Shown here in pieces: positions 1 through 29,470 of a stretch of DNA of 29,470 nucleotides. The DNA comes from a virus. Position numbers and translations under genes: made by a program. The notes under the pieces are model-generated. The model was not told where the DNA came from, did not search any database, and worked only from the letters and a program-made list of their open reading frames with translations. The stretch spans positions 1 to 29,470 of the IMG/VR virus record IMGVR_UViG_3300007818_000003. One strand, given 5' to 3'. The first letter of the stretch is position 1; every line of letters starts with the position of its first letter.

Positions 1-73
1 CCCTATAATTAAGATTTAGCAAGATTTAGCAAGATTTAGCAAGATTTAGCAAGATTTAGCAAGATTTAGCAAG
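1..73. repeat. Window-end redundancy: nt 1-73 are identical to nt 29398-29470 (closure overlap of a circular assembly)
   Basis: Direct comparison: ccctataatt plus 6.3 copies of aagatttagc at both ends. The overlap ends inside a tandem repeat. Confidence 0.95.
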
Positions 74-83
74 ATTTAGCAAG
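11..83. repeat. Perfect tandem array of the 10-bp unit AAGATTTAGC (7.3 copies) between cos and terS
   Basis: Seven identical consecutive 10-mers at 11-80 plus aag. The period matches one helical turn. The array lies about 45 nt from the cos core. Confidence 0.95.
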
Positions 84-126
84 CCAAAACTTTTCTTTTT
101 GATTTTTTGGGGGGTTCGCAGCCGGG

Positions 127-137
127 AGTCCTTTGTG
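127..137 (-). other. cos: cos core (936-group cohesive-end sequence CACAAAGGACT read on the minus strand)
   Basis: Plus strand reads agtcctttgtg, the reverse complement of the 11-nt overhang I recall as published for 936-type phages. It is flanked by the short inverted repeat cagc/gctg and by G6/G7 runs (111-116, 169-175). Confidence 0.6.
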
Positions 138-210
138 CTGAAAACTTCCCTTAACATAGCGATTAATGGGGGGGTGTATATAGAAAAATATTTTTATTTT
201 CTTTTCACAA

Positions 211-297
211 TCACTTTAACTTAATAGCCAACAACAATAACAGCAATGCTATACGTGGACTGATGAACAACATAATAATAAATAATAATATAATCAT
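211..297 (-). CDS. Possible 28-aa hydrophobic peptide (MIILLFIIMLFISPRIALLLLLLAIKLK)
   Basis: ATG at 297 is preceded by aaagggagaag (SD-like, 5-nt spacer). Stop tga at 211-213. Very short and AT-rich, so it may be chance. Confidence 0.25.
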   Translation of the reverse strand: MIILLFIIMLFISPRIALLLLLLAIKLK

Positions 298-316
298 TCG
301 CTTCTCCCTTTATCTT

Positions 317-348
317 ATCGAACCCACGTTTACTATTAGACTATACAC
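317..348 (-). pseudogene. tRNA remnant: D-arm-like and T-arm segments of a tRNA-Trp-like copy with the anticodon arm missing
   Basis: Minus strand tatagtctaatagtaaacgtgggttcgat matches tRNA-Trp catagtataatggtaa...aaacgtgggttcgat, with the anticodon stem-loop absent between two gtaa motifs. No acceptor stem pairing. Confidence 0.45.
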
Positions 349-354
349 CACTCA

Positions 355-426
355 TCAGGATAGCTGGACTCGAACCAACACTACATGTTCCCAAAACACG
401 CATGCTACCATTAACACTATATCCTG
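355..426 (-). tRNA. trnP: tRNA-Pro (anticodon UGG), 72 nt, no encoded CCA
   Basis: Hand-folded cloverleaf: acceptor CAGGATA/TATCCTG, D stem GTGT/GCAT, anticodon stem CGTGT/ACATG with loop TTTGGGA, T arm GTTGG-TTCGAGT-CCAGC, discriminator A. The C1-G72 pair is typical of bacterial tRNA-Pro. Confidence 0.85.
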
Positions 427-480
427 TTACTATATGCCATAAGAACTATAACTTATAACATATAATAAAATAAAGGAGAA

Positions 481-551
481 CACGAACAGCAGGAATCGAA
501 CCCACGTTTACAGATTTGGAATCTGTAGCATTACCATTATACTATGCTCGC
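481..551 (-). tRNA. trnW: tRNA-Trp (anticodon CCA), 71 nt, no encoded CCA
   Basis: Hand-folded cloverleaf: acceptor GCGAGCA/TGTTCGT (two G-U pairs), D stem GTAT/ATGC, anticodon stem ACAGA/TCTGT with loop TTCCAAA, T arm GTGGG-TTCGATT-CCTGC, discriminator G. Confidence 0.8.
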
Positions 552-767
552 AATATGCAAAGGGCTGTTAGTTTATTTACTCATTTAACTAAGGCATTCC
601 CGTCACCTTGCACCCTCTGCTTGGCTGTTAACTCTATAACATTTAAGCACCGTCAATCAGTACACCTACTTTAAGCTCCTTATATCGTCAAGGGTAACGG
701 ATAGTTTTCTTTTGCGGTATACACTAACAACCCATTTCCATATAGGCGAACTACTCAAAGTTCCTTT

Positions 768-935
768 TCAATTTAACGTATTTAATATTCCAGCTACTAC
801 CAATAAGATAGACGTAAATACACTTAGCATAATAGCTAGATAGTCATGGCGATAATACCACTCTTTAAAGTTGGTAACCGAACCTACACCATATAAAATG
901 CCTAGAATAATCAAGGCAATATTAATTACAATCAT
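768..935 (-). CDS. 55-aa small membrane protein with two predicted TM segments (MIVINIALIILGILYGVGSVTNFKEWYYRHDYLAIMLSVFTSILLVVAGILNTLN)
   Basis: Below the ORF-track cutoff. Its ATG overlaps the stop of the upstream resolvase gene (ATGA at 932-935), which implies translational coupling. Two hydrophobic stretches. Confidence 0.6.
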   Translation of the reverse strand: MIVINIALIILGILYGVGSVTNFKEWYYRHDYLAIMLSVFTSILLVVAGILNTLN

Positions 936-1414
936 TTATTCTCCTGACTTTCTACATAGAGTAAGATACAAAACGCGTCTGCCATGTCATCATTGATATC
1001 ATTATCAGGTACTATGTTATAGCTCTTGAGTATCTCAATGCTTTGCTCTTTTCTTGCTTTGCTTTTACCTTTGATTAAGTGATAACCACACCACATTGAA
1101 TTGCTTATATCAACATAGCCAATATTATGACGATTACGCATAATTCCTAAGAATGAACCGTTAGCTCTAATCAATGAGATGTTTCCCTTAGACTTGAACG
1201 TGATGATAGGTTCTTCGATATAAATAAAATAATCAAATAAGTTATAATGCTCAATGACTTCTGTTATACCGTCAGCAATTAGTTTTGCACGTTCCAAAGG
1301 ATCTTTACTTTTGCCACCTGCTATTGAACCAACTACATACTCATTTGTCAAAGGATTGCGAAACGCATAACCAGTATTAGAAGTGCTAAAGTCAATCGCT
1401 AAGGCTTTGCTCAT
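932..1414 (-). CDS. RuvC-like Holliday-junction resolvase / structure-specific endonuclease (936-group middle gene)
   Basis: The N-terminal ALAIDFSTSNTGYAF carries the RuvC-type catalytic Asp motif; a C-terminal DDMADAF acidic motif follows. Size and position before cos match the middle-operon endonuclease of bIL66/bIL170/sk1. Confidence 0.8.
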   Translation of the reverse strand: MSKALAIDFSTSNTGYAFRNPLTNEYVVGSIAGGKSKDPLERAKLIADGITEVIEHYNLFDYFIYIEEPIITFKSKGNISLIRANGSFLGIMRNRHNIGYVDISNSMWCGYHLIKGKSKARKEQSIEILKSYNIVPDNDINDDMADAFCILLYVESQENK

Positions 1415-3492: not shown

Positions 3493-4389
3493 ATGACTAA
3501 CATATTTGAAAAAGTACAGACAGCCAAGCACTTAAAAGAGCGTGAAGACTTAATAAATTTAAAAGATGACTGGCTTATTGATACTTTAATGCCAAGTTCG
3601 CAAGCTGGAATATTAGTAGCTCCGTTTAAGTCGTTTAAAAGCTCTCTAGCAATGCACATGGCTTTAATGGTATCGCAAGGACTACCTTTTTTTGGTTATG
3701 ATACAAAGCGGAGCAAGACACTATACATCGACAATGAGGACACGGACAGAGAACTAAACAAAAGGCTTAGAAATAAAGACACTGCACCAGAAGACTTGCA
3801 TTTCTTAACAGGTGGCGAGTTTATGCTTGATGATTCGCACCACATGAATTTATTGTATGAGTACATCAAAGAAAATGATATCAAGTTCGTTATTTTAGAC
3901 AACCTTATGACAATGCTAAGAAATGGAGATATTATCTACGGTAAAGACTTCGAGCCAATGCTTAGAAGAATTACACGCTTGAAGTTGCTCTTTCAAGATG
4001 TAACTTTTCTACTAGTAGCTCATGCAAACAAGTCAGCTTATGCAAACTCAATGGACGATAAAGCCTATATGGTAAAGCCTAGCGATGCCTTAGGTGGTTC
4101 TACTCTTACAGCTTGGGCGGAGTTTATGCTGATGTTAAGCCCTAAACGTGGAAAACATAACGACTTCTCTAAGCTATCAGTAAAAGCGCGTGGTTACCAG
4201 TTTGATGATGATTTAAACTTTTCTTATGTTGATTCAGTATTTACTTGTGTCAATAAATCAAAAAAAGAACCTGATAGTGAACTAGTTGAAAAAGTAAAAA
4301 GGGAAACTCCTAAAGAAGTAACGAAAGAATCGGCACAGGCTTTCTTAGACTTAGCTAAAGAGCAAGGAAAGGTAACAGAAAATGATTAA
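3493..4389 (+). CDS. RecA-fold ATPase (AAA_25/RepA-like), putative replication/recombination protein with an atypical P-loop
   Basis: GILVAPFKSFKSSLAMHMALMV aligns by eye to the G..V.PGGAGKS.LAL..A P-loop region. Walker B-like FVILDNL and LLVAHANK are present. SD aaaggaga. Confidence 0.7.
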   Translation: MTNIFEKVQTAKHLKEREDLINLKDDWLIDTLMPSSQAGILVAPFKSFKSSLAMHMALMVSQGLPFFGYDTKRSKTLYIDNEDTDRELNKRLRNKDTAPEDLHFLTGGEFMLDDSHHMNLLYEYIKENDIKFVILDNLMTMLRNGDIIYGKDFEPMLRRITRLKLLFQDVTFLLVAHANKSAYANSMDDKAYMVKPSDALGGSTLTAWAEFMLMLSPKRGKHNDFSKLSVKARGYQFDDDLNFSYVDSVFTCVNKSKKEPDSELVEKVKRETPKEVTKESAQAFLDLAKEQGKVTEND

Positions 4390-4639
4390 TTACGAAAACA
4401 AAGCTATTAATTTACACGCTGAAGTGTATGGCTGGCTATATCGTGCATTAGAAGAAATGATAAAAGCAGAATGGTACAATGACGAGCTTTTCAAAGTATG
4501 GCTTGGCCGTGCTGAATTTCTAGTCAGACAGTCAAAGAAATTGCATACAGCTTGCGAAAATGATTATTCTAAACGTGCATTGATTAGGGCTTTGCAATTA
4601 AAAGTAGAAATAAATGAAAAAATATCATCTAATAGTTGA
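4382..4639 (+). CDS. 85-aa hypothetical protein
   Basis: Track ORF overlapping the upstream stop by 8 nt. Helical composition. Confidence 0.65.
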   Translation: MINYENKAINLHAEVYGWLYRALEEMIKAEWYNDELFKVWLGRAEFLVRQSKKLHTACENDYSKRALIRALQLKVEINEKISSNS

Positions 4640-29263: not shown

Positions 29264-29407
29264 ATTGTCCTTTCTTTTAAATGTGTTTATATCGTTTAAA
29301 GCCTATATTCTCGTTTCTAAGAACAGCAACAACTTTTGCTTATAAGTTTACCCGCTTGGGTAACTCTGCTCTCACAAGCCAAAATATGAGCATATAGCCC
29401 TATAATT

Positions 29408-29470
29408 AAGATTTAGCAAGATTTAGCAAGATTTAGCAAGATTTAGCAAGATTTAGCAAGATTTAGCAAG
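29408..29470. repeat. Second rendering of the AAGATTTAGC tandem array (6.3 copies, truncated by the window end)
   Basis: Identical to nt 11-73. Confidence 0.95.

Follow-up and report, generated by a model that had tools for sequence, protein, structure and literature searches.

The window, that is, the whole stretch of 29,470 nucleotides analyzed here, is a complete Skunavirus (936-group) genome from IMG/VR, in an orientation that is the reverse of the GenBank convention. Close to its left end, two tRNA genes are found between the resolvase gene and cos, and read along the minus strand the region is laid out as follows:

932..1414, minus strand: gene for a RuvC-like Holliday junction endonuclease (resolvase, middle gene m3), named from the annotation of homologues
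768..935, minus strand: gene for an m4-type membrane peptide of 55 aa, from the ORF list; the equivalent sk1 gene is annotated 'm4 protein'
552..767, minus strand: ORF-poor spacer of 216 nt 5' of tRNA-Trp, composed of an optional insert and a core
481..551, minus strand: tRNA-Trp (CCA), by ARAGORN and Rfam
427..480, minus strand: spacer of 54 nt between tRNA-Trp and tRNA-Pro
355..426, minus strand: tRNA-Pro (UGG), by ARAGORN and Rfam
317..335, minus strand: remnant of a tRNA-Trp variable loop and T arm, GTAAACGTGGGTTCGAT, recognized from its sequence and not a tRNA
211..297, minus strand: gene for a hydrophobic peptide of 28 aa with a Shine-Dalgarno site, the last ORF before cos
127..137, minus strand: core of cos, CACAAAGGACT, located by its sequence and by GenBank genome ends

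The GenBank genome ends align to window positions 127/138, at cos, and the cos sequence CACAAAGGACT is the one given in Table 1 of PMC4759559. An earlier note on this DNA had placed the two tRNA genes on the minus strand after the resolvase and a membrane peptide gene and before cos, and the placement, strand and neighbors were correct. Two details escaped it: the 28-aa ORF (297-211) and the T-arm remnant (317-335) sit between tRNA-Pro and cos, and the tRNAs are therefore followed by two further features before cos is reached. The 73-nt direct terminal repeat of the record (window 1-83 / 29398-29470) falls inside a AAGATTTAGC tandem array adjoining cos, and for this reason the number of array copies, like the genome length of ~29.4 kb, is assembly-dependent.

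Over the 29,470 nt, ARAGORN called exactly two tRNA genes, tRNA-Pro(tgg) at 355-426 and tRNA-Trp(cca) at 480-552, both on the minus strand. The Rfam model RF00005, whose gathering score is 29 bits, matched both at full length (model 1-71), with 58.8 bits (E = 1.8e-10) for tRNA-Trp at 481-551 and 54.5 bits (E = 2.7e-09) for tRNA-Pro at 355-426. The earlier note, which had proposed two tRNA genes with complete cloverleaves and a tRNA predictor as the way to check them, was thus right in coordinates, strand and anticodons, on which ARAGORN and Rfam agree, with both genes called on the minus strand; the ViennaRNA minimum-energy folds are near-cloverleaf for both molecules, in keeping with the folds it had drawn. 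A permissive Rfam rescan of window 1-1000 gave no further credible tRNA. A third candidate at 300-352 was also considered and set aside as a remnant, since ARAGORN did not call it and Rfam did not match it even at E<=5.

Both genes carry the nucleotides by which a bacterial host would recognize them. The identity elements of bacterial TrpRS are the anticodon CCA and the discriminator G73, and those of bacterial ProRS and TrmD are G35, G36, A73 and C1-G72, with G37 for m1G37 formation. The phage tRNA-Trp has C34 C35 A36 and G73, in agreement with the tRNA-Trp of Lactococcus lactis, together with a G1.U72 pair and the anticodon loop UUCCAAA. The phage tRNA-Pro, with C1-G72, A73, G35, G36, G37 and the anticodon loop UUUGGGA, has all the ProRS/TrmD elements, as has the host tRNA-Pro. 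Neither gene encodes a CCA end, and the same is true of the host genes for tRNA-Pro and tRNA-Trp. All conserved tertiary nucleotides are present in tRNA-Trp (U8, A14, G18 G19, and the T-loop GTTCGA/R). The tRNA-Pro, which is 100% identical to the copies of phages P008 and AM11, has U8, G18 G19 and the T-loop; U14 replaces A14, a nucleotide that is almost universal in tRNAs, and C14 occurs in some relatives.

The tRNA pair had been regarded as unusual for a 936-type phage, an expectation that did not survive comparison, for the pair is common in relatives and has already been published. Among 80 IMG/VR loci collected via the resolvase, with tRNA content called by ARAGORN, 26 had none, 21 had Trp and Pro, 18 had Trp only and four had Pro only, the rest being variants with a third tRNA or a pseudo-tRNA. 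Among the third genes of these variants are a tRNA-Ser(UGA) that is convincing, an sk1-type pseudo-tRNA and a paralogue resembling tRNA-Pro whose anticodon arm is broken. In some Skunavirus phages the tRNA-Ser(UGA) is well-formed and lies between tRNA-Trp and tRNA-Pro (L030:3369-3455, L038:933-1019), which means that the tRNA island can hold three tRNAs. When restricted to 71 informative loci (the window and the 70 IMG/VR loci whose downstream sequence was long enough), the frequencies were 65% for Trp, 44% for Pro, 70% for either and 30% for neither. In GenBank, ~240 records have a full-length match to tRNA-Trp and ~190 to tRNA-Pro, of a total of 376 resolvase-bearing records.

The pair is annotated at the same site in the ASCC phages, CHPC781, 4R15L, 4R16L2, the FB/GL/RH phages and the OP4519xx series; in a set of Canadian Skunavirus genomes, tRNA-Pro and tRNA-Trp were reported in 6/10, Pro only in 2/10 and none in 2/10 (PMC8050962), and the 936 phages R31 and R3.4 are entered as '2 (Trp, Pro)' in Table 2 of PMC5371800. 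In the Skunavirus phages compared (ASCC series, CHPC781, FB3/FB14/RH6, R31, R3.4, OP4519xx), position, order, strand, anticodons and spacer are the same as in the window and identity is 92-100%, whereas the window has the longer, 216-nt form of the upstream spacer. The Trp/Pro pair is, therefore, a published, common and optional tRNA island of the most frequent dairy phage genus. Annotation of these genes is inconsistent across records: unannotated copies are found in the model phages sk1 (Trp), p2 (Trp) and P008 (Pro), as well as in dozens of LP and MF448xxx records, and tRNAs go unmentioned in a comparative paper on 90 genomes of the 936 group.

Variation among relatives was used to ask what has been kept in these genes, with alignments of the distinct sequence variants, 25 for tRNA-Trp and 15 for tRNA-Pro. 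Seven stem pairs of tRNA-Trp are variable; the changes are confined to G.U, A-U and G-C, and 95.6% of stem cells are paired, with exceptions solely at pair 31-39. This pair is mismatched (A31.C39) in 23 of the 25 variants and has been repaired in two ways, as A-U in the window, whose tRNA-Trp differs from those of the other Skunavirus phages in having U39, and independently as G-C in one relative (L076). tRNA-Pro has four variable stem pairs, and pairing is kept in 100% of its stem cells. When the pairing partner was slid by 1-3 columns, pairing fell to 24-54%. A double-sided compensatory change was seen only once, so the support consists of one-sided changes that preserve pairing; since these are transitions that pair with either partner, the shuffle control is uninformative, and the structural argument is carried by the slid-partner control and by the absence of pair-breaking changes.

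Nucleotide diversity points in the same direction, with values of 0.035 for tRNA-Trp and 0.045 for tRNA-Pro, close to the 0.036 of resolvase codon positions 1+2 and ~4-5x below the synonymous sites and outer flanks (0.197 for resolvase third codon positions; 0.16-0.18 for the outer flanks). The inter-tRNA spacer, which in relatives falls into length classes of 54, 68-69 or 169-195 nt, has a diversity of 0.034, as low as that of the tRNAs. This equality suggests that the Trp-spacer-Pro unit travels together and, the spacer being equally conserved, that the low diversity of the tRNAs may be due in part to a recent spread of the cassette and not to selection. Taken with the kept stem pairing and the presence of the identity elements, the low diversity nonetheless indicates that tRNA-Trp and tRNA-Pro are probably functional genes.

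The same genes are frequently lost or damaged. On a tree built from the adjacent resolvase and m4 DNA, the presence and absence of Trp requires at least 12 changes (mean with shuffled labels, 20.7) and that of Pro at least 20 (shuffled mean, 23.2), the latter being near random. Two relatives (L089, L096) have internal deletions of the anticodon region, one tRNA-Pro copy (L046) has an AGG anticodon, and pseudo-tRNAs and T-arm remnants occur among relatives. In 7 of 31 tRNA-Pro copies (L026, L036, L051, L056, L061, L079 and others), U37 is found instead of G37. The m1G37 modification guards against +1 frameshifting, and with G37 replaced these copies could not receive it. A24, forming a U11-A24 pair, was observed in four of the 25 distinct tRNA-Trp variants (L030, L068, L079, L094), the window having G24; the G24A change is that of the Hirsh UGA suppressor of E. 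coli. Because ~30% of relatives have neither gene, the tRNAs are not essential, and the comparison of loci indicates that Skunavirus tRNA genes are dispensable and subject to fast turnover. The combination of clear structural constraint with frequent loss makes this island a convenient natural system for studying the role of one or two tRNAs in a small virulent phage, and CRISPR-based editing of p2 and sk1 exists.

The island is also shared beyond the genus. The 949-group phages (AM11, 949, PhiL47) belong to another genus and have genomes of ~126 kb, in which the tRNAs lie in a larger tRNA region in the order Pro, ORF, Trp, Trp. The tRNA-Pro of AM11 is identical, and the match runs on for 12 and 16 nt into the flanks to give 101 nt at 99%; the tRNA-Trp of AM11 matches in the anticodon and T arms at 91% and has the same A31.C39 mismatch. 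The regions of AM11 (L100, KY554775) listed as shared are 2488-2588 and 4265-4451; they cover the tRNA-Pro cassette and a stretch of 188 nt shared at 78% with window 621-773. The near-identity of the Pro cassette in a 126-kb phage implies gene flow between lactococcal phage groups, and tRNAs for Trp and/or Pro have likewise been described in the unrelated lactococcal groups 949 and P087 (PMC5371800).

Such patchiness and exchange raise the question of whether the island does anything for the phage. It could be a nearly neutral mobile cassette, easily recombined between co-infecting phages (e.g., through the shared GGTTCGA of the T arm), of little or no benefit, constantly lost and decaying. 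The 12 and 20 changes on the neighbor-gene tree, with Pro near random, the 26 tRNA-less loci out of 80, the decay products (deletions, G37U, the AGG anticodon, pseudo-tRNAs and T-arm remnants), the 101-nt cassette in an unrelated genus and a spacer conserved as strongly as the tRNAs are all compatible with that account. However, all 11 variable stem pairs stay paired and the mismatch has been repaired twice, which would be unexpected without structural selection; diversity is 4-5x under that of synonymous sites, and tRNAs of these two specificities are found in three groups of lactococcal phages. We regard near-neutrality as rather unlikely.

A recent capture from the host was rejected because the identity to the L. 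lactis genes is just 61% for Pro and 72% for Trp. The host genes used for this comparison were read from contaminating contigs in actinomycete assemblies, found with a 16S primer, that carry rRNA operons of L. lactis; the protein encoded beside one of these operons is an exact match to one of L. lactis, and any two of the contigs agree at 99.8% or more. Short L. lactis rRNA-operon contigs with tRNA arrays were present in 17 actinomycete or other assemblies (L003-L019, mostly of the 'NPDC' series), where they evidently represent contamination. The tRNA-Pro(UGG) of L. lactis has the same C1-G72, A73 and anticodon loop as the phage one and differs at position 14, which is U in the phage and A in the host; the tRNA-Trp(CCA) of L. 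lactis has the same anticodon and G73. The anticodon stems of the phage and host tRNAs are entirely different, and A-U and G.U pairs are more frequent in the stems of the phage tRNAs. Given these identities, the phage tRNAs appear to be old phage lineages.

This distance from the host bears on the proposal of the earlier note that the phage tRNAs replace host tRNAs depleted during infection. In that reading, they would replace or outlast host tRNA-Trp and tRNA-Pro attacked by a host nuclease or a modifying toxin, and the divergence from the host (72% identity for Trp, 61% for Pro, with wholly different anticodon stems) would be in keeping with this. Lactococci do carry tRNA-directed systems, namely PARIS, the colicin-D-like Hesat and AbiEii, and the same two tRNAs recur in unrelated lactococcal phage groups. 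There is also a precedent in phage T5, whose tRNA-Lys neutralizes PARIS (Burman et al. 2024, as cited in PMC13064643) and is likewise a phage-encoded tRNA duplicating a host specificity. For T5, however, the host nuclease of matching specificity has been identified and is withstood by the phage tRNA, whereas for the window no Trp- or Pro-directed nuclease has been reported and the Pro loop is unchanged. The comparison of anticodon loops with those of L. lactis, which the earlier note had suggested, gave UUUGGGA in both phage and host for Pro and a sole difference for Trp, at position 32 (UUCCAAA in the phage, CUCCAAA in the host), so that the Pro loop speaks against the proposal and the U32 of the Trp loop counts in its favor.

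According to a 2026 review (PMC13064643), the targets of the lactococcal systems are Lys (PARIS), Arg (Hesat, predicted) and 3'-end modification (AbiEii), none of the known or proposed systems acting on Trp or Pro. Moreover, escape mutants to 13 lactococcal systems, many of them in sk1, which has tRNA-Trp, never fell in the tRNA region, and many successful dairy phages lack both tRNAs. With an unchanged Pro loop, a Trp loop that differs at position 32 and no reported Trp- or Pro-directed system, the proposal found no support; because such a system has yet to be reported in lactococci, it is speculative, and we judge it quite improbable. A broader version, in which the Trp/Pro cassette moves among Skunavirus, 949 and P087-like phages in answer to a Lactococcus-specific tRNA-depleting defense or stress, or for T-box control, is a long shot. 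If it were true, U32, the 31-39 pair, the weak A-U and G.U stems and the Hirsh-like G24A and G37U variants would be adaptive and not drift.

The explanation towards which we lean, and which we hold to have somewhat better than even chances, is that these are accessory tRNAs giving a modest and conditional benefit in translation. They would form part of a longer transcript, which could begin at the middle promoter and read through or could start at a conserved element 3' of m4; the host RNase P and RNase Z would excise them, the host enzyme would add CCA, as is required for the host's own Trp and Pro genes, and the host TrpRS and ProRS would charge them. The pools of tRNA-Trp and tRNA-Pro(UGG) would thus be topped up during the synthesis of relatively Trp-rich phage proteins. 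No terminator-like site was found between m4 and the tRNAs, which makes transcription from the middle promoter by read-through plausible.

Codon demand gives this explanation uneven backing. Trp makes up 1.40% of phage residues (TGG, 14.1 per 1000 codons) and Pro 2.29% (23.0 Pro codons per 1000; CCT 101, CCA 66, CCG 21, CCC 10), whereas the L. lactis proteome has ~1.0% Trp and >3% Pro. Since the phage is above the host in Trp and below it in Pro, demand might favor keeping tRNA-Trp but not tRNA-Pro. The earlier note had reasoned that, Trp having a single codon, a phage tRNA-Trp cannot be explained by synonymous codon bias; the logic is sound, yet an explanation by supply remains, with Trp at 1.40% of phage residues. 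For phage 949 on IL1403, codon usage was reported not to explain the tRNAs, in the statement quoted in PMC3888941. That Trp and/or Pro tRNAs recur in groups 949 and P087, and that the AM11 cassette is 99% identical, suggests that tRNA-Pro too is worth keeping in a lactococcal host. The supply explanation must nevertheless accommodate the ~30% of relatives without a tRNA, the common decayed copies and the U14 of tRNA-Pro.

Upstream of the tRNAs, the 552..767 spacer can be divided into an optional insert of ~95 nt (669-767) and a core (552-668) that is present in 77 of the 80 loci, with or without tRNAs. Within the core, a block of ~55 nt directly after m4 (612-668, minus strand) contains TTGACG and TGTTATAGA and shows at least 95% conservation across 78 sequences (77 loci and the window). 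The block may be a promoter or regulatory site, possibly a late transcription start; were it a promoter, the tRNAs could head a late transcript and not end a middle one.

The setting of the tRNAs also allows a role in RNA processing or regulation, in which they would mainly provide sites where RNase P and RNase Z cut, thereby separating or stabilizing the neighboring mRNAs (those of the middle genes upstream and of the 28-aa ORF downstream) or a late leader, or in which uncharged tRNA would act on host T-box leaders. A small conserved ORF does stand on either side of the tRNAs, no terminator intervenes, and the block conserved at 95% or more is just upstream; by established T-box rules G73 and the anticodon would fit what a Trp T-box reads. 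Phages without tRNAs, however, retain both flanking ORFs and the block, so processing at the tRNAs is not needed, and pure punctuation would not require the conservation that is seen in the anticodons and the synthetase identity elements. We consider this role very unlikely.

The insert at 669-767 contains an ORF of 30 aa (minus strand, 758-666), whose product starts MSSSPIWKWVV and which has two Trp codons and one Pro codon. A leader-peptide attenuator based on this ORF was considered as a general control and rejected, because the insert is rare, occurs partly in tRNA-less loci and is followed by no terminator: it was found in only ~13 of 77 loci, three of them without tRNAs, and most Trp-bearing phages lack it.

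On the cos side, copies of 17-21 nt of the tRNA-Trp variable loop and T arm recur near cos in many relatives (among L020-L099, ~250-500 nt downstream of the tRNAs), and the 17-nt T-arm remnant of the window resembles what a lost tRNA or a recombination event would leave behind. The 28-aa ORF (297-211, minus strand), which the ORF list lacks, is conserved at 84-100% in most related loci, including tRNA-less ones; its homologues have ~43 aa in most relatives, and the copy in the window looks internally shortened.
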